Notes: generated by a model from the sequence alone, not told the origin. 64,000 bases of DNA from an uncultured Clostridia bacterium (GCA_944383415.1 CALWPK010000001.1:103107-167106); one strand, 5' to 3'; numbered from the stretch's first letter, positions 2,059-64,000 are shown. Made by a program: numbers and translations.

Positions 2059-2116
2059 ATTTCCCCTAACCTCTTAATACACTAACACATTGAATTTCGA
2101 TTTTCACAACAATTCT

Positions 2117-2123
2117 TGTCGAA
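2117..2123 (+). promoter_or_regulatory. Candidate Spo0A box (TGTCGAA) about 60 nt upstream of the spoIIE start
   Basis: Exact 7-mer TGTCGAA. spoIIE is a classic Spo0A-activated gene in Bacillus. A 7-mer can occur by chance. Confidence 0.3.
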
Positions 2124-2191
2124 TAAAAAGATAAATCTACCTTTTTGGTTGAAAATAAAATCTTTTATCTTGCTATTCGCTCGCTTTTTTC

Positions 2192-2220
2192 TTGACAAAC
2201 GAAATTTTTATTGATAAAAT
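2192..2220 (+). promoter_or_regulatory. Sigma-A-type promoter for the pheS leader
   Basis: TTGACA (2192-2197), 17-nt spacer, TAAAAT (2215-2220). Confidence 0.5.
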
Positions 2221-2519
2221 GATAATGCAATTATATTGCACAATAAAGACTATGACGATGTGTAAGTAGCAACTAGTTTTCATCCTGAGAGGACACCCTT
2301 AGAAAGCAAGGTGACTATGTTCAGACTAATTGTGAATTTCAGCATCTGAGTCGCACTCGGTAAACGCATTTGTTTAAAACGAGGCTCAATTCGAATGCCC
2401 ACACGCATTTGAATTGCTTGAAGCCTCTATATGTATTCAGCAAATGTGATTAAGAGTCGCCAGACAAAACTGTGAAAATGTCAATAAGGTTCATAAACTA
2501 ATATCGCACAGCCCAAAAT

Positions 2520-2948
2520 TCGCACTCTCACCAAGATAGAGCGAACAAACGAGCAATATCGCTGTTCGCTGAATGTAGTGAAGCGAACGAGAAAGAGCGT
2601 TCACTCAAGGCTCCCACAAGCACCTAAAAGCAAGCAATTTGCCAAAAGATCTAGTTAGGATTATTTGGGGCCCCCACAAGCACTAGTGCGCAGTGGGGAA
2701 GAGGAGCGACAGATCAAAGAGGCTATAATTGCGTTAGCAATTTGCCAAAAGATCTAGTTGCGACGAGCGGTGGGAAAAGCGAACAAACAAACTTTAGGTG
2801 ATGTTCGCTAAACGAAGTTTCGCGAACGAATAAAAGTGCATTCATTCAGGGCTCCCACAAGTGTCGTAAGATACGCGGTGGGAAAAGCGAACAAACAAAC
2901 TTTAGGTGATGTTCGCTAAACGAAGTTTCGCGAACGAATAAAAGTGCA
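2520..2948 (+). repeat. Mosaic hairpin-repeat insertion inside the T-box leader (H, D-like and other modules). Includes a 74-bp exact-looking direct repeat with 108-bp period.
   Basis: H units are at 2667-2698 (GGGGCCCCCAC..GTGGGG) and 2849-2883 (GGGCTCCCAC-AAGTGTCGTAAGATACGCG-GTGGGA). The D-like module spans 2699-2766. GCGGTGGGAAAAGCGAACAAACAAACTTTAGGTGATGTTCGCTAAACGAAGTTTCGCGAACGAATAAAAGTGCA occurs at 2767-2840 and again at 2875-2948. Confidence 0.8.
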
Positions 2949-2983
2949 GTTTGTGAGCGCAATTAGGTGGTACCACGAGATTC

Positions 2984-3012
2984 CCTCGTCCTAATATTAG
3001 GGCGAGTTTTTT
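2984..3012 (+). terminator. T-box attenuator terminator
   Basis: GC-rich hairpin followed by TTTTTT, immediately 3' of the T-box sequence and 60 nt before the pheS ATG. Confidence 0.7.
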
Positions 3013-3072
3013 AAATACCACTTGAAATTCAAATATCACAAGTCCAAGTCTCAAGATTAAAAAGGAGAATTT

Positions 3073-4095
3073 ATGAAAGAAAAGATACAAGAAATTTTGA
3101 AATACACCCTAGACACGATAGACAAAATCAACACCAGTGCTGAATGCCAAAATTTGCGCGTAGAGATTTTAGGCAAGAACGGCAAGATCACTCAACTATT
3201 CCGCTTTATGAAAGAGGTGAACCCCGAAGAAAAGCAGGCAATGGGACAACTCTTGAACAACGCGAAACAAGAGGCTGAAAGGATGATTTCCAGCAAAGAG
3301 ATTTTTTTGCAAAATGCCGAACTGGAAGAAAAATTGATGAAAGAAAAAATTGACGTCACGCTTGACCTGAATCAAGAGGAGGTCGGTGCACTCCACCCTA
3401 TTTCTATCGACTTTATGAGAATGGCAGAAATCCTGAACGGTATGGGGTTTTCTCAAATAGACGGCCCTGAGATTGATTATGACAAATACAATTTCGAACT
3501 AGTGAATGTGCCGAAAGATCACCCATCTCGTGATATGCAGGATAGTCTATATATCACTAGTGATATCCTGCTCCGTACGCAGACATCAAACACGCAACCT
3601 CGTGCTATGGAAAAGATCAAACCACCATTCAAAGTCTTCAGTTTCGGTAGAGTGTTTCGAAAAGACGAAATAGATGCCACCCATACCCCTGCGTTTTATC
3701 AACTAGAAGGAATCTATATAGACAAAAAGGTGAGCCTCGCCGATCTAAAGCACGATTTGAGTTTGATCCTCAAAAAGTATTTAGGCGAAAGCACCAAGAC
3801 GAAATTCAGAGCATCCTATTTCCCTTTCACCGAGCCTAGCGTAGAGGTGGACGCAGAATGCAATGTATGTAAGGGGAAAGGTTGTTCTGCCTGCAAAGGT
3901 GCTGGTCAATACGAAATCTTGGGCGCAGGGATGATTCATCCGCACGTGCTTGAGATGAATGGAATCGATCCAAACGAATATAGCGGATATGCATTTGGAT
4001 TCGGATTCGACCGCTTCCCAAAAATGCGCTATAAAATCCCAAATGCGAAAGTAATGTTCGAAAACGATGTCAGATTCATCAGACAATTTAGATAA
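3073..4095 (+). CDS. pheS: Phenylalanine--tRNA ligase alpha subunit
   Basis: 340-aa ORF with RBS AAAGGAGAA. Class II aaRS motifs are present (HPISIDF, FRKDEIDATHTPAFYQLEG, GAGMIHPHVL, GFGFDRF). Confidence 0.97.
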   Translation: MKEKIQEILKYTLDTIDKINTSAECQNLRVEILGKNGKITQLFRFMKEVNPEEKQAMGQLLNNAKQEAERMISSKEIFLQNAELEEKLMKEKIDVTLDLNQEEVGALHPISIDFMRMAEILNGMGFSQIDGPEIDYDKYNFELVNVPKDHPSRDMQDSLYITSDILLRTQTSNTQPRAMEKIKPPFKVFSFGRVFRKDEIDATHTPAFYQLEGIYIDKKVSLADLKHDLSLILKKYLGESTKTKFRASYFPFTEPSVEVDAECNVCKGKGCSACKGAGQYEILGAGMIHPHVLEMNGIDPNEYSGYAFGFGFDRFPKMRYKIPNAKVMFENDVRFIRQFR

Positions 4096-4338
4096 ATTGA
4101 CTGGGAATCTAACGAAGTTTCCTGCCGATCTTAGGAGGCAGTGTACGACGAGGATTCATCAGACAATTTAGATAAATTGGCTAGGAATCTGACGAAGTTT
4201 CCTGCCGACCTTAAGAGGCAGTGTACGACGAAGATTCATTAGACAATTTAGATAAATTGGCTGGGAATCTGACGAAGTTTCCTGCCGACCTTAGGAGGTA
4301 GTGTACGACGAAGATTCATTAGGCAATTTAAGTAAATA
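4066..4338 (+). repeat. 80-bp tandem repeat, 3 full copies plus a partial one. Each copy restarts with a copy of the last ~26 nt of pheS.
   Basis: GATTCAT(C/T)AG(A/G)CAATTTA(G/A)(A/G)TAAAT recurs at 4073, 4153, 4233 and 4313, an exact 80-nt period. Each unit also carries the hairpin CTGCC-GA(T/C)CTTA(G/A)GA-GGCAG and the motif GTACGACGA(G/A)G. Confidence 0.9.
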
Positions 4339-4494
4339 TAAAATATAATGTGACCATCATTACAATATAAATGTTGAAAAAAAATAAGAATTTTAAAAGT
4401 ATAGATGGATTCAAAATTTAACTTTTTAATTCGGTCAAAATAAAAAATCGCGAAAAATCAACAAATTAATTTGATAACCTAGAAAGGAGAAAAT

Positions 4495-52590: not shown

Positions 52591-52617
52591 AGTCTCTCCT
52601 TTTAATTGTACTAGATT

Positions 52618-52646
52618 ATGATATCAAATTCTTGAACTATTGTCAA
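52618..52646 (-). promoter_or_regulatory. Sigma-A-type promoter of rpmH
   Basis: On the minus strand: TTGACA (52646-52641), 17-nt spacer, TATCAT (52623-52618). Confidence 0.5.
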
Positions 52647-52709
52647 TAATTACAAAGAAAAAAATCAAATAGCAAATATTCGACATTTTCAAGCAAATTT
52701 ATCTTTTCC

Positions 52710-52968
52710 TATTTGATTTTATTTGATTTCTATTTGATTTCACCTTGTAAAATGGCGCGACTTGTCTATTTAATTTTTTTGAATCCCGTTTTCGGCAATC
52801 AAAATTCCAATTAATTTTTGAATCCCGTTTTCGGCGATCGAATTTTTTGATCCATTCATATCTTTAAACTCAAATCGCATTGATGTTCAAACTCGTTTAC
52901 ATTATGTACTCAAATTGCATTGATGTTTCTTACTTTATAGACTTTGCACTCGCATTGCATTGAATTTT
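52710..52968. repeat. Several short direct-repeat sets upstream of rpmH
   Basis: ATTTGATTT occurs 3 times (52710-52741). TTTTTGAATCCCGTTTTCGGC(A/G)ATC occurs twice (about 52774 and 52815, ~41-nt period). ACTCAAAT(C/T)GCATTGATGTT occurs twice (52868, 52908), with a degenerate third copy near 52946. Confidence 0.6.
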
Positions 52969-53188
52969 CACATATTCGTTCAAATAAATTTTACATTTTC
53001 AATAAAATGGCGAATCCTATTGAATTCACTATGATTTTATTCTATTAAAAATAGCAAAAATCATTGAATTATTCGAACGTTTGTTTGATAAAGCAAGTTA
53101 AATAAACTTTCGGAGGACTAAATAATGTTCGGCAATTTTTTGATACAAAGTTTTAAAATTTGATTAAAATTTTTCCAAAACATTATAT

Positions 53189-53977: not shown

Positions 53978-54323
53978 CCTTTTGCTTGCCTGCTCCGCTT
54001 TCCCTCTACGCACTAGTGCTTGTGGGAACCCTTTGTCGTCGAAGATATGGAAAAGTCTATCTTCGCTATACCTATTAGGTTATCCAGTATCTTAACCTTT
54101 CAACCCTCTAGACTGTCTATCCATATCTGCATCGCAGTCTACGCTTTTGCTAGAGTGACAAAGCACTCATAGCCTTTTGCTTGCCTGCTCCGCTTTCCCT
54201 CTACGCACTAGTGCTTGTGGGAACCCTTTGTCGTCGAAGATATGGAAAAGTCTATCTTCGCTATACCTATTAGGTTATCCAGTATCTTAACCTTTCAACC
54301 CTCTAGACTGTCTATCCATATCT
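53978..54323. repeat. 151-bp direct repeat (53978-54128 and 54173-54323, 195-nt period), each copy carrying an inverted H-type hairpin
   Basis: The two copies look identical by eye. Each contains TCCCTCTACGCACTAGTGCTTGTGGGAACCC (54001-54031 and 54196-54226, H in reverse orientation) and GTCGTCGAAGATATGGA. That 17-mer is the inverted copy of the gene sequence at 54316-54332. Confidence 0.9.
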
Positions 54324-54538
54324 TCGACGACGATGTCGCAGATTTCGCCCAAAGTGGCACAATATTTCAAGACATCCCAAGGTTCGTTGGTGTGGAAATG
54401 AATTTTAATAAGTTCACTATCTCCAACCGCGATGAGACAATCTCCCTTAAAATTTTTCATAAAATAATCTCTAATCTTGTCCTCATCCAGCCCTTTTCCC
54501 TCAATGAGTAATTGTGTATCGTATCTAAATTCTATCAT
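54287..54538 (-). pseudogene. Fragment of a DAK2-domain fusion protein (YloV-like), central segment only, 3' end replaced by repeat sequence
   Basis: GDCLIAVGDSELIKIHFHTNEPWDVLKYCATLGEICDIVVEDMDRQ matches the conserved GDS-LVV-D...KVHVHT..PG.VL...G.L..I.I.NM..Q segment of YloV, recalled from memory. There is no Dak2 domain upstream and no C-terminal half. The ORF does have an RBS (AAGGAGAA) and an ATG. Confidence 0.5.
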
Positions 54539-55713: not shown

Positions 55714-55890
55714 TCAGTCAATATCAACCGCCATTCTGCCAGGAATCTCGCTCTGCCCAAAACTACACACGCTCTGCCCATAAATGACGCAGACTCTACC
55801 CATAAACGACACACTCTCTCAAAATAATTCCCTTTCCAAATTCGATCTAATAATTCATATCTTATTTGAAATTAAATTTCTTCATTGCTT

Positions 55891-56034
55891 TGTTATATCA
55901 TTGTACTATTATATCATTATGTTATTATATCATTGTACTATTATATCATTATGTTATTATATCATTGTACTATTATATCATTATGTAATTATATCATTGT
56001 ATTGTTATATTATTGTGTTATTATATCTTCATAT
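55891..56034. repeat. 16-bp tandem repeat, 9 units (three perfect 32-bp dimers, then decaying copies)
   Basis: TATTATATCATTGTAC / TATTATATCATTATGT alternate. Confidence 0.9.
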
Positions 56035-56446: not shown

Positions 56447-59400
56447 CTAGTTCTTAGTGTAGATATAATATAGTTCGTCCTCAGAGGTGGTCTTGGTGAA
56501 GGTCGCTGTGTTCTCGAGATAACTATTCGTGCTACCCTCTTCAATACAACTAATCAGCACCCGCACCTCTGTAGCACTTTGCAAAAGGCGTCCACACGAC
56601 GATGTGCTGGTAGCAGATTTGTACGCATAATTGCTCTCTATAGTCACACTGGTGAGACTGCTACAATCTTCGAATGCCCCCATTCCTATGCTGGTCACAC
56701 CTTCTGGTATGGTGATACTGGTGAGATTACTACAATCCTGGAATGCATAACTTCCTATGCTGGTCACACTATCTGGTATGGTGATACTGGTGAGACTGCT
56801 ACATCCATTGAATGCATACTCTCCTATGCTGGTCACTTGTTCGCCTATTGTTACACTGGTAATTGAAGTACATCTATAGAACGCATAAGCATTGATTGAT
56901 GTGGCTGTATCTATATTTGCCTCTGTCACCAATTCATTTCCATTTATATATAGATTCGCTCCATAGTATAATGGATTTGCTGAATTAACACCAAAGGATA
57001 TTGATACCCAATCATTGATATCTCCTGTATAATATACATCTGTGAGACTGGTACATCCTGAGAATGCAGAATTTCCTATGCTGGTCACACTATCTGGTAT
57101 GACAATACTCGTTATATTTGAATAGGCAAAAGAACCTCTGTGGCTTTGTCCATCCCAAGTGGCAGAATCAATTGCCATGATTTGATAGTCATCACCCTCA
57201 ATGATCGTACCATCTAGCGCTATAGAATATGTACTTGGGATCACTACCGCACCGCCCAGACCTGTATAATCAGTAATCACACCATCTTCAATCTCGAATG
57301 GATAGGCTACGACATAATCTCCATTCAACCAATAAAAAGAACTATAGGTAGATGTTAGATATTCAATAATTGTAACATTATTAGATAAATCTTCTGCAGA
57401 TATCCTAGATGTGCCGTAAGTAACATAAAAATGATTAGCCAATACCCAATTCCCAGATTTCATAAAATCGACGTTAGTCAGAGCACTGCTTCCATAGAAT
57501 GCATAAGCACCTATGCCCTCTATTGCTATATCATTTTCTATTTTTAATTCTTTTAATTGTATTGGAGTAATATCGCTTTCGACCAAAGTTCCGTCATCAT
57601 TAGAGACTTCGACTAAGAAATAACTTGGGATGCGTCTTACATTGCTGGTCACTGTGATGGTTACTGAATTGCTGAGTCCTATGAATGAATTTAAGGTCGT
57701 TTCGCAATTTGTCGCAGAAAATATTATCTCCTTGAGATTGCTACAGCCTGACAATATCCCTGTGCCTATGCTTGTGATGTTTTCAGATATCCGTATCGTC
57801 TCTATATCTGAATTGGCGAACACTCCGTCTGCTATGCCCGTCACCTCGAAATCGTCTCCGGCAACCACTGTACCTGTCCTGAATGGTGCGGTAGTGAATT
57901 TGATGCGATATATTTGATCCATCAGTTCTTCGTCCGTTATATCTGGGTTTTGTGCCTTCAGTTCTGCCTCTTTCTGTTCAAATATTGTCATCATTTGATT
58001 AAAAGTCTGCTCTGCTGAGGTCTGATTCTCAAGAGCAGTACCATCACTGAATGTTATGCTGAACGGCTTGCCTAATGACTCTGCTGTTATCATTGCATAT
58101 TGAATCGGAAATATTGCATATTCAACACTTTCCATTCCATCATCCATTCCGTTAAGAACAATCTCATAAGTGGCTCCATCTATCTGTATTGGGAAAAGAC
58201 TTTCATTTGTTTGCCAATCGGGATCTAATGTATTCATTGCTTCAGTAAATTCAAATATATTTTTATAGAAAGTACGTTCTCCACCATTAATAGTGCAATA
58301 AAATCCGCCTAAATACATTAACTTGAGTGCCATTGGAGCGTTTGCGAAATCGCCGTCAAAATTAGATAATTCCTCATAGGTCAGAGTTGCACTTCTGGTC
58401 TCTACCATATCTGCTAGTGAATATGTGCTTGGGAGAACTACGTATGTGTCTGTGCCCGTGTATGAGGTGATGATGCCGTCCTCTATAGTGAAGTCATAAC
58501 TCGCTTTGATCTCAGAGTCAAATATGGCTGTGTAGGTGATGTCTCCTGTCACTGGGTTTAGTTCTTGATCCCAGCCTGTGAAGGTATAACTATGGCTTGC
58601 GGTCTCCTCACGTGTAGGTGTCTCGCCGTTGTACTCTGGGGTGGTGCCATAAGGAACTAAGGTATCTGTCTCTAATGTACTGCCATCCCAGTTCTTCCAC
58701 GTTACTGTGAATTTCTGGATTTCCTCGCTATAGGTGACCACTAGGTTGCCTGTGATCTTATATTGATTCTCACTCCCCTCTACTTTCTCTGCTCCTGATA
58801 CAGAAAAAGCAGTGACATCGTGTCCCTCTGTGGTGTCATAAGTTATCTCTACTATATCTCCATAGTGAAGTGTGGCTGTGTTGGATAAATACAGATCTCC
58901 GAATTTCACATTCACTTGCTCTGGCTTGGATATCGTGTACTCTATATATTCTTCTCGGAAGTTGGCGAAGAGTTCTAGATCGGTCACTATGCGGGTTGTA
59001 CTTAGATCTACCTCGTTCCCTTCTGCATCTACCCAGCCTATGAATGTGTATGTGTATGTATGGGTGCTATGCTTGGTTGGTGTGACGCCTGTGTAGGTGC
59101 AGAGTTGGTTGTATTGTATATCTAGAGTCTGATACATCTCATTCTTCTCTAGGCTATCGTAGAATGTCACCTCATAGGTGTTGATCTCCACACCTTCTAC
59201 CTCTACTAGTGTGTCTCCATAGATTGTGAGAGTATAGTACCCTTCTTTATCTGGGGTGACTACTTCGCCATTCACTTTGACTGTGATATCGCTCTCGTCA
59301 TAACCTGTAGCGAGATTTAGTTTGAATCTATACTCCGTGTTGTACTCTATCTCTACCTGGTTGTTCACTATATCCTCGCCCTCAATGGTGAATGCTGGGC

Positions 59401-60037
59401 TGGTTGGGAAAGTCACCTTATATACATTCGCCTCATACTTGGCATATATGGTCATATTTTTATTTATCTTATCCGTATCTTTGTATGGCACAGTGAGTTC
59501 GGCATCCTTGTAGAACCCTACGAATGTATATCCCGTGATCTCTTGTGGAACTATGTCCTTGATCGTGCTACCACGATTGATATTTACTGTATACTCTTGT
59601 ATCACGTCAATATTGTTTGAGATATCTACCGACACCTTCCTTCTAGATAGGTATACTGCTGTAGGTATTGCTACGCTCGCTGTGACTAGCAAAACTACAG
59701 CAGTGGCTATCGCTGCTTTCTTTCGCTTGCTATTCTTACCTGCATTCTTCTTGATCCTCTCGCCCTGACTCTGTATACTGAAGTCGTCACTCGAACTGTT
59801 CCTCTCCACATTTGCCGTGTCTACAGCAACCTCTTGACCTTTCACTACCTCGTCAGTCTGCTTAGGTTCAGTCTTGGCACCTCTCTTGCTTGCACTCTGC
59901 TTACTAGCATTAGATTTCACTGCTCTTTCTTGAGTGGTGGCATTCGCTTTGCTTGCTTTCGATGTAGAGACTTTCTTCTCTACATCCTTTGCGTTTGTAT
60001 TCTTGGTTGACTTTGGTTTCTTTTCTTGATTTTCCAT
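56447..60037 (-). CDS. Large membrane-anchored surface protein: Listeria-Bacteroides (Flg_new) repeats plus BspA-type leucine-rich repeats
   Basis: K-rich N-terminus, a single TM (AAIATAVVLLVTASVAIPTAVYL), YTFVGFYKD/YTFIGWVD/YTFTGWDQ repeat motifs, and C-terminal repeats of the type IPDSVTSIGNSAFSGCTSLT. RBS AAGGAGA. Confidence 0.85.
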   Translation of the reverse strand: MENQEKKPKSTKNTNAKDVEKKVSTSKASKANATTQERAVKSNASKQSASKRGAKTEPKQTDEVVKGQEVAVDTANVERNSSSDDFSIQSQGERIKKNAGKNSKRKKAAIATAVVLLVTASVAIPTAVYLSRRKVSVDISNNIDVIQEYTVNINRGSTIKDIVPQEITGYTFVGFYKDAELTVPYKDTDKINKNMTIYAKYEANVYKVTFPTSPAFTIEGEDIVNNQVEIEYNTEYRFKLNLATGYDESDITVKVNGEVVTPDKEGYYTLTIYGDTLVEVEGVEINTYEVTFYDSLEKNEMYQTLDIQYNQLCTYTGVTPTKHSTHTYTYTFIGWVDAEGNEVDLSTTRIVTDLELFANFREEYIEYTISKPEQVNVKFGDLYLSNTATLHYGDIVEITYDTTEGHDVTAFSVSGAEKVEGSENQYKITGNLVVTYSEEIQKFTVTWKNWDGSTLETDTLVPYGTTPEYNGETPTREETASHSYTFTGWDQELNPVTGDITYTAIFDSEIKASYDFTIEDGIITSYTGTDTYVVLPSTYSLADMVETRSATLTYEELSNFDGDFANAPMALKLMYLGGFYCTINGGERTFYKNIFEFTEAMNTLDPDWQTNESLFPIQIDGATYEIVLNGMDDGMESVEYAIFPIQYAMITAESLGKPFSITFSDGTALENQTSAEQTFNQMMTIFEQKEAELKAQNPDITDEELMDQIYRIKFTTAPFRTGTVVAGDDFEVTGIADGVFANSDIETIRISENITSIGTGILSGCSNLKEIIFSATNCETTLNSFIGLSNSVTITVTSNVRRIPSYFLVEVSNDDGTLVESDITPIQLKELKIENDIAIEGIGAYAFYGSSALTNVDFMKSGNWVLANHFYVTYGTSRISAEDLSNNVTIIEYLTSTYSSFYWLNGDYVVAYPFEIEDGVITDYTGLGGAVVIPSTYSIALDGTIIEGDDYQIMAIDSATWDGQSHRGSFAYSNITSIVIPDSVTSIGNSAFSGCTSLTDVYYTGDINDWVSISFGVNSANPLYYGANLYINGNELVTEANIDTATSINAYAFYRCTSITSVTIGEQVTSIGEYAFNGCSSLTSITIPDSVTSIGSYAFQDCSNLTSITIPEGVTSIGMGAFEDCSSLTSVTIESNYAYKSATSTSSCGRLLQSATEVRVLISCIEEGSTNSYLENTATFTKTTSEDELYYIYTKN

Positions 60038-60119: not shown

Positions 60120-60462
60120 GTAAATTCAATATGCCATACGAAAATTTTATAATAAATTTTTATATATTTATATAATACCCACCCCAAAGAATGCGAAAAT
60201 GGGTCAAATTTGCCAGTTTCCATCCGCCCAAAACAAAAATTCAATCTATCCAATTCTACTAATCGCTCAATTGATCAAGACTATTAAAAAATTCAGGAAA
60301 CACATTAAATTGCCAATTGAAAATACAAAACACGCTCTATCAAATTTTTCAAGATTAAAAATCTATTCACAACCGATTTATTATTAAATATTTTTTTTGA
60401 TTTGTGCAATATTTATTTACTTTTGGAATTGTTTTTTATATAATACGAAAAATGGAGAAATT

Positions 60463-61731
60463 ATGAAAAAGATATTCCCTGATTACTCAGAAAACATCGC
60501 AGAATTCGGCGTGCACGACCCCTCTATCATTAAGTCGGCGGACAAATATTACACGATCTCAACGCACGGGTTTTTCCAATTCCGCGAGTCGCGTGACCTC
60601 GTCAACTGGGTGGATGCAGGGGATAGTTGCTTTGATAGTGAGAGCATCAGGCGTGAACTCAAGGACGGAATAGATTATTGCAAAGTGGACGGGCCTAAGT
60701 CTAGGCGTGACGGATCCCCATTTTGGGCACCAGATCTCGTGAAAATCGGGAGGAAATATTGTCTATACTACTCTATCTCGTCTTTCGGTAGTACGCAAAG
60801 TTTCATAGGGCTAGCAAGATCGGAAAATTTGCTCGGTGGGTACAAAAATGCAGGTTGCATAGTGAAATCTGCATTCGGAGGAGATATCACGCGTCCGAAC
60901 GCGATAGATCCGTGCGTGAGACGGGATAAGACGGGCAGATTGTGGATGAGTTTTGGCAGTTTTTTCGGCGGGATATATATCAAGGAATTGAATCGAACTA
61001 GCGGACTCGCCATTGACGAAAAAGATAACGGCATACACATTGCGGGCGGGATGATGGCGCCAGTGGAGGGCTCGTATATTATCTACAACGAAAAGACAGG
61101 CTATTATTATCTATTCATATCATTTGGCGGACTGACTGAGAGTTATAACGTGCGCGTGGCGAGATCAAAAAATATCACGGGACCATACCTTGACCCGCGT
61201 GGGAAGATTATGACGGATAGAGATTGGGATAGTCTCGGTGGAATGGTGATTGCAAACTATCATTTCGCTCACCAAAAGGATACATACACAGCACCTGGAC
61301 ACAATAGCATACTTCAGGATGGGGAAAAATTTTTCATCATCCACCACACGCGCCTGAATAGACGTGTGGACAAGCATTATTTGAACGTGCGCAGGATGTA
61401 TTTCAACGAACTAGGCTGGCCAGTCGTGATGCCGAATAGATACGCTTTCGACCGCCCTTATATGTCGAACAAAAATGTGAATGGAACGTATAATATCATT
61501 CACTTTAGACACATTACTAGCGCAGAGACTTTTGAATCCGAAAAGGTGAAAATTTCGCTAGACAAAAATATATTTAAGCATAATCAGTATGTCCGATTCA
61601 CTCTTGAAAATAAAACATATTTCGGCGTGATCTCTCGTGTGTATGATGAGGGACTAGTTGACTATACCATTGCTTTTGGTGCTATGGCTGGGGATGGCGA
61701 GACTGTGTTCGCTGTCAGGATAGGAGACTAG
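60463..61731 (+). CDS. Glycoside hydrolase family 43 (arabinanase/xylosidase-like), apparently cytoplasmic
   Basis: VHDPSIIK, FWAPDL and GSYIIYN... are five-bladed propeller catalytic-region motifs of GH43. The ATG at 60463 follows GGAGAA. The track TTG start at 60397 is unlikely. Confidence 0.8.
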   Translation: MKKIFPDYSENIAEFGVHDPSIIKSADKYYTISTHGFFQFRESRDLVNWVDAGDSCFDSESIRRELKDGIDYCKVDGPKSRRDGSPFWAPDLVKIGRKYCLYYSISSFGSTQSFIGLARSENLLGGYKNAGCIVKSAFGGDITRPNAIDPCVRRDKTGRLWMSFGSFFGGIYIKELNRTSGLAIDEKDNGIHIAGGMMAPVEGSYIIYNEKTGYYYLFISFGGLTESYNVRVARSKNITGPYLDPRGKIMTDRDWDSLGGMVIANYHFAHQKDTYTAPGHNSILQDGEKFFIIHHTRLNRRVDKHYLNVRRMYFNELGWPVVMPNRYAFDRPYMSNKNVNGTYNIIHFRHITSAETFESEKVKISLDKNIFKHNQYVRFTLENKTYFGVISRVYDEGLVDYTIAFGAMAGDGETVFAVRIGD

Positions 61732-62290
61732 CATCCCTCGCCCACTAACCTAGTATTGAACTTTTCATCATAAGTTGTTGACTTTCAATTTTTCAATGTA
61801 TACAAAAATGAAAATACGGTTTATAAAAGCGAATTGAGTTTCGATCATATCGTCTTTTTTCTAGACCAAAAACGTAAGAGAATGGGCGAAATTTCTTCGT
61901 ACCATATTTTTAATCTATGAAGGTTTCATAAAAACAAATTATGTTTTTCATTGCGTCTTTGTTCGATCTAAACTTGCGGTCAGACAAATTTCGTCTTTCT
62001 TGGAGGTTGCTTTGCCTGATCGACATCCAAATAAACGCTATATAATAGTCAGTAAAACTGCTCACAAACATAATTAATTTCGCAACAATGTTTCAAGCAA
62101 TCTTGCCTTCTCTATTTAAAATATCCACCGGCTCTTCTCTCTTCTTTGTTATTTCTTATCTTAAAATAATCCGGGAGATGAAAAGTACAGAGTGAAGAGG
62201 TGAAAAGCGAAAGAAGAAAAGTTAAAAACGAAGGAATAAGAGTACAAACAAAAATAACCCGCCCCTAATAAAAATAAGAGGTCTCCATAA

Positions 62291-63240
62291 GAACTTGATC
62301 GAAGTGGGAAGAGGAGCAACGGCGTCGAAACAAGTCTACAATTCATTTACTCGTAAACTCGTAAATTTCATCTTTTAGACTGTTTCTCCTTAGTCCCACT
62401 GCGTACCCTTTGGGCACTTGTGGGAGCCCTAATGTTACTTCGCTACGATTGCGCTATTTATAAGCAATCTGGCATAAGGTCGCAGTGCGACGAGGGCTCC
62501 CACAAACAACTTCCAACGCCACACCCCAATTTTATTCACAAGATAGTTGAAAACTATCGCAGTGAAAGAGGAGCAATCATCATAAGGATAAAATAATTTT
62601 GCATTCTACTTGTTTCTCTTACAAAATTATTTATTATATAGATGCATTGCGACGAGAAGTGGGATAGGCGAAACAATCGTCTATTAGTGAAGTTTTGCGA
62701 TTAGCAAAACGATAAAAAAGGCGATAAAACAAATATAAGGGCTCCCACGAGACGAATGTCGATGTGGGATAAAAAAATGACCGCCCAATAGGTCTATAAT
62801 TACGCAGTAATTTGACAAAAGGGCGATTTTTTCAAAAGGGCTCCCACAAGCACTAGTGCGATGTGGGATAGGCGAAACAATCGTCTATTAGTGAAGTTTT
62901 GTGATTAGCAAAAAGATAAAAAACGGCGATAAAACAAATATAAGGGCTCCCACGAGATCTAGTTCGAAGTGGGAAGAGGAGCGACCGAACAAAAGGCTTA
63001 TATTCGCCTAAACATCGTTTAGCGAATTTGCAAAAGTTCGAGTCGCGACGAGGGTTCTCACGAGACGAATGTCGATGTGGGATAAAAAAATGACCGCCCA
63101 ATAGGTCTATAATTACGCAGTAATTTGACAAAAGGGCGATTTATATATAGGGCTCCCACAAGCACTAGTGCGAAGTGGGATAGGCGAAACAATCGTCTAT
63201 TAGTGAAGTTTTGCGATTAGCAAAACGATAAAAAAAGACG
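62291..63240. repeat. Mosaic array of hairpin unit H alternating with modules B, C and D (order: half-H, B, H, C, H, B, H, D, H, C, H, B)
   Basis: H copies are at 62739-62769, 62838-62868, 62944-62974, 63052-63082 and 63150-63180, with an inverted H at 62394-62429. B occurs 3 times, C twice, D once, and there is a degenerate D start near 62305. There is no ORF. Confidence 0.88.
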
Positions 63241-64000
63241 AATTGCTTCGCCTTGGTGCGGATTGAGGCAATTTGCACGAACTTTGAGGATTAGATAAAG
63301 CAGAATTAATCTGCTTTTCCGTTTTAATGTTTTCTTCAACTGTAAATTTTGGTGGAGTTGGATTGTTTGTATAATTAAACAGTATAACTACTGCATCATT
63401 ATACAAATAGATTTCTCTAACAAATGTATTGACTAAGAGTTTTCGTATTTTAATGTCGCTTGTATCTTCAAATACTTGCTTTCGTAAAAATTGGTCAATA
63501 TCTTCCTTTGTTAAAAGCAAATTGTTTTTATGTTTTTCTTTTGTGATTTCAATTTTTATTTGTTCAAGTTCTGTTTCAAGTTCACTCAAACGACTTTTTG
63601 TCATTTCGGTTATTATTCCTTGCTCAATCGCTTTAATCATATTTTGACAAGATTTATTTATTTCCTTTTCTCTTTGTTCTAGTAGTTTCAAGTTTGCATT
63701 ATCATTTGCATGTTGTTTGTGGTATTCAAAAATTTTATCGGTTAAAAACTGTGTGTTTTCTTCGCTATTAAGTGCTTTAGATATTGCTTGCATAACAAAA
63801 TCTTCAAGTTCTTGCTTTTTAAGTGATTTCATATTGCAAGGACCTAACTTTTTTCTTCGTGAGCCGCAAACATAGTAATAGTGGATATCTTTTGTATGGC
63901 TTGTCCCACTTTCACCATACATTTTATGTTTACATTCTCCGCATATAAGTTTGCCAGAGAGAATATAGTCATAAATCTCTTTTTTTCTACTAGGTGCAAT
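63200..64000 (-). CDS. Large serine recombinase (C-terminal recombinase/zinc-ribbon/coiled-coil part). The N-terminus runs off the window at 64000.
   Basis: The frame is open to the window edge: ...YILSGKLICGECKHKMYGESGTSHTKDIHYYYVCGSRRKK (zinc beta-ribbon) followed by a long coiled-coil. The last ~15 codons read into repeat module B. Confidence 0.85.
   Translation of the reverse strand: MAPSRKKEIYDYILSGKLICGECKHKMYGESGTSHTKDIHYYYVCGSRRKKLGPCNMKSLKKQELEDFVMQAISKALNSEENTQFLTDKIFEYHKQHANDNANLKLLEQREKEINKSCQNMIKAIEQGIITEMTKSRLSELETELEQIKIEITKEKHKNNLLLTKEDIDQFLRKQVFEDTSDIKIRKLLVNTFVREIYLYNDAVVILFNYTNNPTPPKFTVEENIKTEKQINSALSNPQSSCKLPQSAPRRSNSSFFIVLLIAKLH

Follow-up and report, generated by a model that had tools for sequence, protein, structure and literature searches.

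A hairpin-punctuated array against a tRNA-Leu end is probably part of an uncatalogued, NIME/BIME-like mosaic repeat family of Christensenellales

Here, we analyzed an array of hairpin-forming repeats in a 64,000-nucleotide (nt) stretch of DNA from an uncultured Clostridia bacterium (GCA_944383415.1, CALWPK010000001.1:103107-167106), which we refer to as the window. Near one end of it, a short hairpin, which we call H, alternates with longer hairpin modules of types B, C and D. We conclude that this region is probably an array of at least 9 head-to-tail units of an uncatalogued, recombination-prone and non-autonomous mosaic repeat family of Christensenellales, comparable to the intergenic mosaic elements of Neisseria (NIMEs) and the bacterial interspersed mosaic elements (BIMEs). 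According to this proposal, each unit would consist of an H of 31-36 nt, an A-rich linker and a three-tier hairpin module of 55-85 nt. We regard it as settled that the array is real, that its family is widespread, that the hairpins are constrained, that the niche is a tRNA-flanking one and that the neighboring integrase is unrelated to the repeats.

The array lies in a non-coding gap of about 1.47 kb between a GH43 gene (60397-61731, plus strand) and the open reading frame (ORF) of a recombinase (63200 to the window end, minus strand), and spans 62280-63252, or 62276-63252 if the edge given by the H covariance model is used. H has the form GGGCTCCCAC-N13-19-GTGGGA and is 31-36 nt long. The array contains 8 H copies (one of them inverted, with its covariance-model match at 62390-62433, and one degenerate) as well as one split H, together with three B modules, two C modules and several D-type modules. 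At up to one mismatch, GGGCTCCCAC occurs 11 times in the window against 0.6 expected, a number that 0 of 100 shuffles reached, and the covariance model of H gave 11 matches at E<=0.002; the model matches are placed at 62276-63184 (eight), in the leader of pheS (two) and on the minus strand at 53997-54230 (two). Seven of the 8 array copies are in direct orientation, as are all copies in the other arrays at loci L045, L011 and L003. The left third of the array (62280-62664) has decayed into a degenerate H, a D-like hairpin, an inverted H, a 5'-truncated D-type module and a split H. The features of the array and its right border are as follows:

62280-62309, plus strand: degenerate H (GGTCTCCATA...GTGGGA), the first array unit (covariance-model match 62276-62313, 20.1 bits, E=0.002).
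62310-62389, plus strand: D-like long hairpin module (GGAGCAAC...GTTTCTCC), with a hairpin fold of -13.9 kcal/mol.
62394-62429, minus strand: inverted H, GGGCTCCCAC AAGTGCCCAAAGGGTACGCA GTGGGA on that strand (covariance model, 43.6 bits, E=6e-10).
62430-62493, plus strand: 5'-truncated D-type module, whose complete form is found in the pheS leader of other strains (L001, L002, L008; sequence comparison).
62494-62664, plus strand: split H, with its 5' half at 62494-62505 and its 3' half, AAGTGGGA, at 62657-62664 (sequence reading).
62494-62664, plus strand: degenerate H and D-type module (62568-62656), enclosed by the split H (sequence reading; module fold).
62665-62738, plus strand: module B copy 1, its 3' closing arm lost (sequence, repeat finder, fold).
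62739-62837, plus strand: unit of H (62739-62769) and module C copy 1 (62770-62837), a 92-nt repeat 98% identical to 63051-63142 (51 bits).
62838-62943, plus strand: unit of H (62838-62868) and module B copy 2, from the 102-nt repeat family D1 (50.6 bits).
62944-63051, plus strand: unit of H (62944-62974) and a D-type module, AGAGGAGCGACCGAAC...GTTCGAGTCGCGACGA (sequence, fold, covariance model), with homologous H-D units at L071, L055 and L037 and in the pheS leader.
63052-63149, plus strand: unit of H (GGGTTCTCAC variant, with a U-G wobble) and module C copy 2 (repeat finder, covariance model).
63150-63252, plus strand: unit of H (63150-63180, 51.6 bits) and module B copy 3 (B3), with closing stem GGCGAAACAATCGTCT / AGACGAATTGCTTCGCC; B3 alone folds at -29.3 kcal/mol.
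63254-63263, minus strand: final 10 nt of a tRNA-Leu gene, CCA included (ATCCGCACCA on the minus strand, TGGTGCGGAT as read on the plus strand).
63200-64000, minus strand: C-terminal part of a large serine recombinase (Pfam Zn_ribbon_recom).

B3 is the only complete B module, with a closing stem of 16 bp, and the array sequence is also found in an independent, identical contig. The first-pass annotation of this DNA had described a hairpin-repeat array without any ORF, and the only ORFs inside the array are indeed of chance size (at most 92 amino acids (aa)). All sequences and coordinates that it quoted check out, including the closing stem of the D module (GCGACCGAAC at 62981-62990, GTTCGAGTCGC at 63036-63046), its inner stem ATTCGC/GCGAAT (63002-63007 with 63022-63027) and the pheS-leader D copy at 2700-2767 with H at 2668-2699 and 2849-2883. 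It was right about the modules and the hairpin and wrong about the limits, as degenerate units start at 62280, a split H lies inside and the array ends at 63252. It had also taken H by itself as the repeating unit. However, the repeat finder returned H plus C as a 92-nt repeat of 98% identity and H plus B as a 102-nt repeat in 3 copies, each H variant going together with its own downstream module; since these are the blocks that are duplicated, the repeating unit is H with its downstream module.

Both H and the modules are under pairing constraint, a conclusion supported by pairing that is kept through many two-sided changes in 70 H copies and 16 modules. The 70 distinct H copies, taken from many genomes, share an invariant 5' GGG tail, a 6-bp lower stem (UCCCAC/GUGGGA), a 2x3 internal loop (RA/GNA) and a variable 4-bp upper stem. 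Across these copies 96.5% of the cells are paired, given a search pattern that demanded a paired lower stem (G-T allowed) and left the upper stem unconstrained; two-sided changes occur at 8 of the 10 pairs, 0 of 500 shuffles match the observed values, and sliding the partners lowers pairing to 31-48%. In the lower stem, for example, UCCCAC/GUGGGA is swapped for CCCCAU/AUGGGG, CCCGC/GCGGG or CCUAC/GUAGG. The tail reads GGG(C/U), its three G positions being kept in 70/70, 70/70 and 66/70 copies, and the unpaired A16 and G33 are invariant or nearly so. Wobble pairs are asymmetric, with 40 GU/UG against 11 AC/CA over all stems; in the upper stem, where alone the counts are unbiased by the search pattern, there are 29 GU/UG against at most 11 AC/CA (the all-stem total). 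This G-U excess therefore marks the H-sense strand as the folding strand.

The B, C and D modules form a single superfamily of three-tier hairpins, in which the outer stem varies, the internal loops are rich in A and the inner hairpin is conserved. Sixteen modules are 97.3% paired, compared with 33-42% when the partners are slid, and contain 57 double-change cells where 19 are expected. The well-preserved part of the array is also more stable than its shuffles on both strands (z=-8.7 and -9.0), with the plus strand 13 kcal/mol the more stable of the two. The stem compensation first noticed between two D copies is thus borne out on 70 H and 16 modules. Selection on a folded RNA or single-stranded DNA had been read from it; the pairing constraint stands, but compensation alone cannot separate selection on RNA from templated quasi-palindrome repair. 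The conserved three-tier form of the modules had gone unnoticed, as had their tie to tRNA gene ends and the T-box position of the leader copies.

For the distribution of the family, we searched for the exact H pattern in one genome per GTDB species, which returned 98 stretches, against an estimate of about 70 chance matches. The high-GC matches look like such chance matches, while the low-GC ones are real and carry the same flanks. Low-GC hosts comprise metagenome-assembled genomes (MAGs) of uncultured Clostridia, obtained in several studies, Candidatus Onthoplasma (placed in the Christensenellaceae by the NCBI taxonomy), an uncultured 'Christensenella', and one MAG each of Lachnospiraceae and Flavonifractor. 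In addition, eight Bacteroidales/Paludibacteraceae genomes carry H as a single unit of about 125 nt, in which a near-invariant H precedes a long hairpin with GCG/CGC as its closing stem; among 7 sequences, 8 pairs covary. These units lie in accessory regions by a DNA methylase, KAP NTPase or VapE-like gene, in either orientation relative to their neighbors. Copies beyond the loci first seen, on which the claim of a family depended, are therefore present both at other sites of the window and in dozens of genomes from different studies. A scan of IMG/VR found no real H copy; its single match is a high-GC coding chance match, and a phage origin was rejected on this account.

The position of the units relative to tRNA genes was surveyed in 39 low-GC loci (291 kb, 86 H copies, 37 tRNA genes). 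In 20 of the 39, H lies within 450 nt of a tRNA, and 41 of 57 H-tRNA pairs are directed at the tRNA, with nearest distances clustering at 72-84 nt, which is exactly one module. The 3' end of the module comes to lie 0-5 nt from the mature tRNA end, be it the 5' end (same strand) or the CCA end (opposite strand), and at L009 and L062 tRNAs are bracketed by units on both sides that point inwards. Further H sites are found downstream of 5S rRNA (L090), 3' of protein genes and in T-box leaders. The array in the window occupies the typical niche of the family, namely non-coding DNA against a tRNA end, here the tRNA-Leu 3' end, convergent with the GH43 gene. The 10 nt at 63254-63263, overlooked so far, are identical to the tRNA-Leu 3' ends of L014, L055 and L086, where they hold the same position against the module; ARAGORN found no whole tRNA in the window.

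Two further types of junction were observed at tRNA genes. At L066 (3683-3960), L028, L060 and L087, an H-module is followed by a direct repeat of the tRNA 3' part (from the T-loop) and a terminator, and such repeats look like att-type scars of integrative elements at tRNA T-loops. At L014, L067, L086 and L062, D-type modules ending in GACGCGC are joined to the reverse-complemented 5' part of tRNA-Leu at GCGTCTGCC; the palindrome at this junction (GACGCGCGCGTC) suggests rearrangement by fold-back or template switching. We also considered whether the unit itself is tRNA-like or tRNA-derived and rejected this, given that ARAGORN was empty in the window and that the adjoining tRNA pieces are ordinary gene fragments or att-type duplications.

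The tRNA-Leu fragment also bears on the serine recombinase gene, beside which the array had earlier been noted. The last ~20 codons of the recombinase ORF are a read-through of the tRNA fragment into B3 before the stop, and the full gene, present in the identical independent contig L107, encodes 523 aa with Resolvase, Recombinase and Zn_ribbon domains, which makes it a large serine integrase; it stands at the edge of an element integrated into tRNA-Leu. Most simply, we read this as an integrative element that went into tRNA-Leu and pushed its 3' end aside, leaving that end next to the array. Because the integrase belongs to that element and the ORF tail is a junction read-through, the adjacency of recombinase and array looks incidental, with the recombinase standing outside the repeat system. 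No recombinase was found next to other H loci, either in the window or in about 40 other genomes examined.

Units multiply, are lost and are reshuffled locally, and strains differ at the same locus in both the number and the kind of units. For the array itself, the GH43 neighbor was found only in the identical contig and in a short contig, and turnover was measured instead at the two other family loci of the window, which are composed as follows:

2608-2960, plus strand: family copies in the pheS T-box leader (sequence, strain comparison, covariance model).
2608-2623 and 2768-2775, plus strand: 5' and 3' halves of a split H in that leader.
2624-2667, plus strand: D fragment, followed by a unit of H (2668-2699) and D (2700-2767).
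2776-2848, plus strand: module, followed by H (2849-2883) and a further module (2884-2960).
2961-2993, plus strand: T-box antiterminator (Rfam, E=0.004).
53997-54230, minus strand: two H copies in a 195-nt tandem repeat of a long hairpin (F), H and a D-type module (repeat finder, covariance model).

In the pheS leader of 9 strains of the window's species, the flanks are identical and the number and kind of units differ: at one extreme two modules enclose a single H, and at the other there are at least three H with different D-type modules. The 195-nt block at 54 kb lies downstream of a truncated ORF resembling FakA, and strains carry one, two, three or at least four copies of it. The arrays thus act like minisatellites with module exchange, as Neisseria NIME arrays do (PMC1797815). 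Recombination or slippage between repeated H and module copies would be the natural route of such turnover, and local expansion and shuffling by this route is well supported.

Units also appear now and then to reach new sites, as sequence comparisons show in part for a group II intron, the Stem III loop of a T-box, a conjugative element and another H. At the Flavonifractor locus L037, an H-D unit lies within a decayed group II intron; this H-D segment of about 115 nt is absent from the two related introns L110 and L111, whose maturases, or intron-encoded proteins (IEPs), are 51-54% identical. A match to Rfam models D1-D4 at L037 had raised the possibility that H-D represents group II intron domains II/III, which we rejected, as the related introns do not have the segment and other H loci have no IEP. 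For the T-box, the Rfam model aligns end to end (88 bits) with the pheS leader of a second species whose PheS is only 42% identical, and in this alignment (L036) an insertion of 147 nt, H among them, falls into the loop of Stem III. In the window's species, Stem I precedes the family copies and the antiterminator follows them; to locate the insertion in Stem III there, the minimal leader in L004 aligns too poorly with the Rfam model. At L041 (2389-4082), 199-nt inverted repeats that are 98% complementary, each with an H-H-module, flank a gene for a 138-aa pilin-like membrane protein that adjoins the VirD4/TraG-like coupling-protein gene of a conjugative element. This L041 segment may be an invertible or duplicated part of the element.

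The T-box leader of pheS (2100-3072; 8700-10000 in L001-L008) is itself unusually long, with about 0.75-1.25 kb from spoIIE to pheS depending on the strain, and because of this length Rfam misses the whole T-box at the gathering score, finding the antiterminator alone. Its specifier region carries UUC-A, a Phe codon. The pheS-pheT spacer (4090-4345) contains a separate tandem repeat of about 87 nt in 3 copies, each ending in ...GCAGTGTACGACGAGG like the 3' end of a D-type module, and varies from 240 to 544 nt by strain. At the 54-kb locus, the truncated ORF (54287-54538, minus strand, 83 aa) matches the FakA/DAK2-type middle domain only and is apparently a gene fragment, its last codons forming one arm of the long hairpin F that precedes H.

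Among known arrays, the earlier likening to BIME/REP or BOX mosaics is a fair analogy at the level of architecture, with Neisseria NIMEs coming even closer. In NIMEs, the 20-bp repeat dRS3 (ATTCCC-N8-GGGAAT) separates 50-150 bp module families in arrays that differ between strains (PMC1797815). H resembles it as a punctuation repeat with 6-bp inverted arms (TCCCAC/GTGGGA) and a variable center, set between modules of 55-85 nt in strain-variable arrays. However, the two have no sequence similarity; H is longer, with a center of 13-19 nt that is base-paired, and is oriented by its asymmetric 5' GGG tail, while its modules are conserved covarying hairpins and its units abut tRNA ends. Prophages integrate at the NIME punctuation repeat through an IS110-type recombinase; no phage or IS110-type integrase is known to use H, and IMG/VR contains essentially no H. 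The split H copies have nothing but other units inside them, and the neighboring integrase element sits in a tRNA fragment rather than in H.

Repetitive extragenic palindromic (REP) sequences are imperfect palindromes of about 35 nt with a short conserved GTAG tail, occurring in many extragenic copies and mosaic clusters, often after genes. As an imperfect palindrome of 31-36 nt that is present 11 times in 64 kb and 86 times over the 291 kb of related loci, H is similar, but the REPs of BIMEs alternate and have a GTAG tail, whereas H is direct with a GGGC tail and its interspersed modules are far longer and structured. Like the array, pneumococcal BOX elements are modular hairpin-forming non-coding repeats, assembled from a small number of module types and found in a Gram-positive host; they differ in their fixed order boxA-(boxB)n-boxC and in having no punctuation hairpin, and there is no sequence or Rfam match. 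The attC sites of integrons are 57-141 nt long, have R and L boxes and are recognized by the tyrosine integrase IntI, their cassettes usually being ORFs. The array shares with them a constant outer pairing around a variable inner structure and one site per module, head to tail; by contrast, H is half the shortest attC length, the adjacent enzyme is a large serine recombinase, and R/L boxes, IntI and ORF cassettes are not present. A palindromic direct repeat of about 31 nt at regular spacing also recalls CRISPR. However, the 'spacers' recur (B three times, C twice), are 55-85 nt long and are conserved across species, and the upper stems of the repeats differ; as the neighbor genes tested showed no cas-like domains either, we rejected this reading. 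Miniature inverted-repeat transposable elements were likewise rejected: array modules are flanked by GTGGGA...TCCCAC, but terminal or single units (L013, B3) have no second half, and there is no target-site duplication, since the centers of neighboring H copies differ. In design, the array resembles the intergenic mosaics already described (NIME, BIME), but the family differs from them in sequence, no partner enzyme like theirs was found for it in the loci searched, and it goes beyond them in its oriented punctuation hairpin with a paired variable center, its covarying modules, its abutment on tRNA ends and its occupation of hairpin loops.

Searches for catalogued relatives agreed with the earlier impression that no described family could be recognized. 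Rfam 15 at gathering thresholds gave no match on H or modules in the window, and neither did matches up to E=10 on the array, the pheS leader and the Bacteroidales and Clostridia loci; the only T-box match, the pheS antiterminator, lies beside the units and not on them. Literature string and full-text searches for H returned nothing relevant, only primer coincidences. Self-cleaving ribozymes (HDV-like, hammerhead, twister), onto which we threaded the sequence by eye, were dismissed, as GGAGC/GCUCC competes with the H stem and no model matched. The array shows no excess of promoters or terminators. A metagenome scan for H-module-T-box produced only chance or host-DNA matches in a collection seemingly without this species; the matches L123-L126 and L130-L134 are near-identical, have about 46-54% GC and look like mammalian host DNA.

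If the array belongs to a mosaic repeat family as we propose, a structure-specific activity would seed new copies, and the pairing constraint on the H-sense strand would reflect selection for the self-folding of each unit. Self-folding would make units harmless or mildly useful, as an insulator, terminator or stabilizer, in highly transcribed non-coding RNA, for instance in tRNA precursors, the pheS leader and 3' untranslated regions. The insertion of the large-serine-integrase element into the tRNA-Leu gene beside the array would be a later step. Several observations weigh against this account. The case for mobility comes from a few insertion comparisons, made on sequences that are rather distant from one another, and we found no enzyme able to move or recombine H in the loci searched. 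Much of the module covariation divides few subfamilies and thus reduces to a small number of independent events, and the G-U bias could also come from single-stranded DNA. Finally, the near-identity of the H lower stem and GGG tail in Bacillota and Bacteroidota, and the presence of H and module at the same place of the pheS leader despite 42% PheS identity, fit a conserved cellular function at least equally well.

Such a function is the core of an alternative that we consider possible, though doubtful, in which stable-RNA and leader transcripts contain H-module units as functional RNA modules. H would bind, or be cut by, a conserved host protein or RNase, and the arrays would be processed to small hairpin RNAs or serve as insulators, terminators or 3' stabilizers for tRNA operons, the pheS leader and convergent genes. 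The pairing constraint with its G-U excess on the H-sense strand, the invariant unpaired GGG tail, A16 and G33, and an H that is near-identical in two phyla are all consistent with this, as is the occurrence of H and module in the pheS leader of two lineages (42% PheS identity) and 9/9 strains examined; type C modules, flanked by A-tracts and T-tracts, moreover resemble bidirectional terminators abutting tRNA 3' ends. However, inward pairs around one tRNA (L009, L062) leave one flank antisense, which suits DNA-level logic better than an RNA function specific to the sense strand, strains vary freely at a single locus in how many units they have and of which type, the Bacteroidales units stand in accessory islands in mixed orientation, and the array has neither a promoter or terminator excess nor an Rfam match. 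A bolder proposal, which we think rather improbable, is that H is the recognition hairpin of a structure-specific factor common to gut Bacillota and Bacteroidota, either a recombinase or transposase that docks units at folded tRNA-like or hairpin DNA, or an RNA-processing or RNA-binding protein. The units would then make up a new module class that is directed at tRNA genes and hairpin loops and shapes stable-RNA operons and T-box leaders, instead of being recombination debris.

We judge it quite unlikely that H is a REP-type sequence moved on single-stranded DNA hairpins by a REP-associated tyrosine transposase (RAYT) or an IS200/IS605-type HUH transposase, with the arrays as BIME equivalents. 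A length of about 31-35 nt, a short conserved 5' tail, an imperfect palindrome with an internal mismatch loop and many clustered extragenic copies would fit, and G-T wobbles are tolerated in DNA hairpins too; yet array copies are direct rather than alternating, the tail is GGGC rather than GTAG, and H orientation is mixed on one side of the likely origin region. A tblastn search of about 1 Mb of H-flanking loci and the window also returned no Y1/HUH transposase ORF, which is a weak test, made with an IS608 TnpA query and with RAYTs being single-copy genes. An integron- or shufflon-like cassette array, with H as the recombination site, modules as cassettes and the serine recombinase as the enzyme, seems very improbable. 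H does have conserved inverse ends and a variable self-pairing center like attC, each variant is paired with one module, and the recombinase gene is 0 nt away, but that enzyme is the 523-aa phage- or integrative-and-conjugative-element-type integrase of the tRNA-Leu element, whose ORF tail is junction read-through; other H loci (window, ~40 genomes) have no recombinase, and nested H halves join module fragments at irregular points with no fixed crossover. That the array arose by local tandem duplication alone or is an assembly artefact, without any family, as the near-identical 92-102 nt repeats might have indicated, has practically no chance of being correct and is refuted by the same sequence in an independent contig and by copies at three further places of the window and in dozens of genomes.

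Christensenellales are abundant, heritable and health-associated gut bacteria that are almost wholly known from MAGs. A dense hairpin-repeat family would account for breaks in their assemblies at tRNA loci and for strain-hypervariable intergenic regions, including that of an essential T-box leader, and would show where markers for strain typing lie. Three features are unusual among bacterial mosaic repeats: a punctuation hairpin near-identical across two phyla; abutment on mature tRNA ends, often on both sides and inward; and occupation of the hairpin loops of functional RNAs (T-box Stem III, group II intron). Together, these suggest a structure-specific enzyme or an unrecognized RNA module.

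In addition to the repeats themselves, we noted several features of the surrounding DNA. A 0.6-kb non-coding stretch upstream of rpmH-rnpA-yidD-yidC-jag (52600-53100) contains the direct repeats TGAATCCCGTTTTCGGC(A/G)ATC and CTCAAAT(C/T)GCATTGATGTT, two copies of each, and may be origin-proximal, with no dnaA gene adjacent. Between the 54-kb H locus and the array lies a gene for a BspA-type leucine-rich repeat surface protein (56447-60037, minus strand), which encodes 1196 aa here and about 577 to 1929 aa in other strains (L113-L120, 1-1330); its setting recalls that of NIME arrays flanking variable surface genes. The spacer downstream of the SIMPL gene (55880-56030) contains an AT-rich tandem repeat of TTATATCATTGTACTATTATATCATTATG in about 5 copies.

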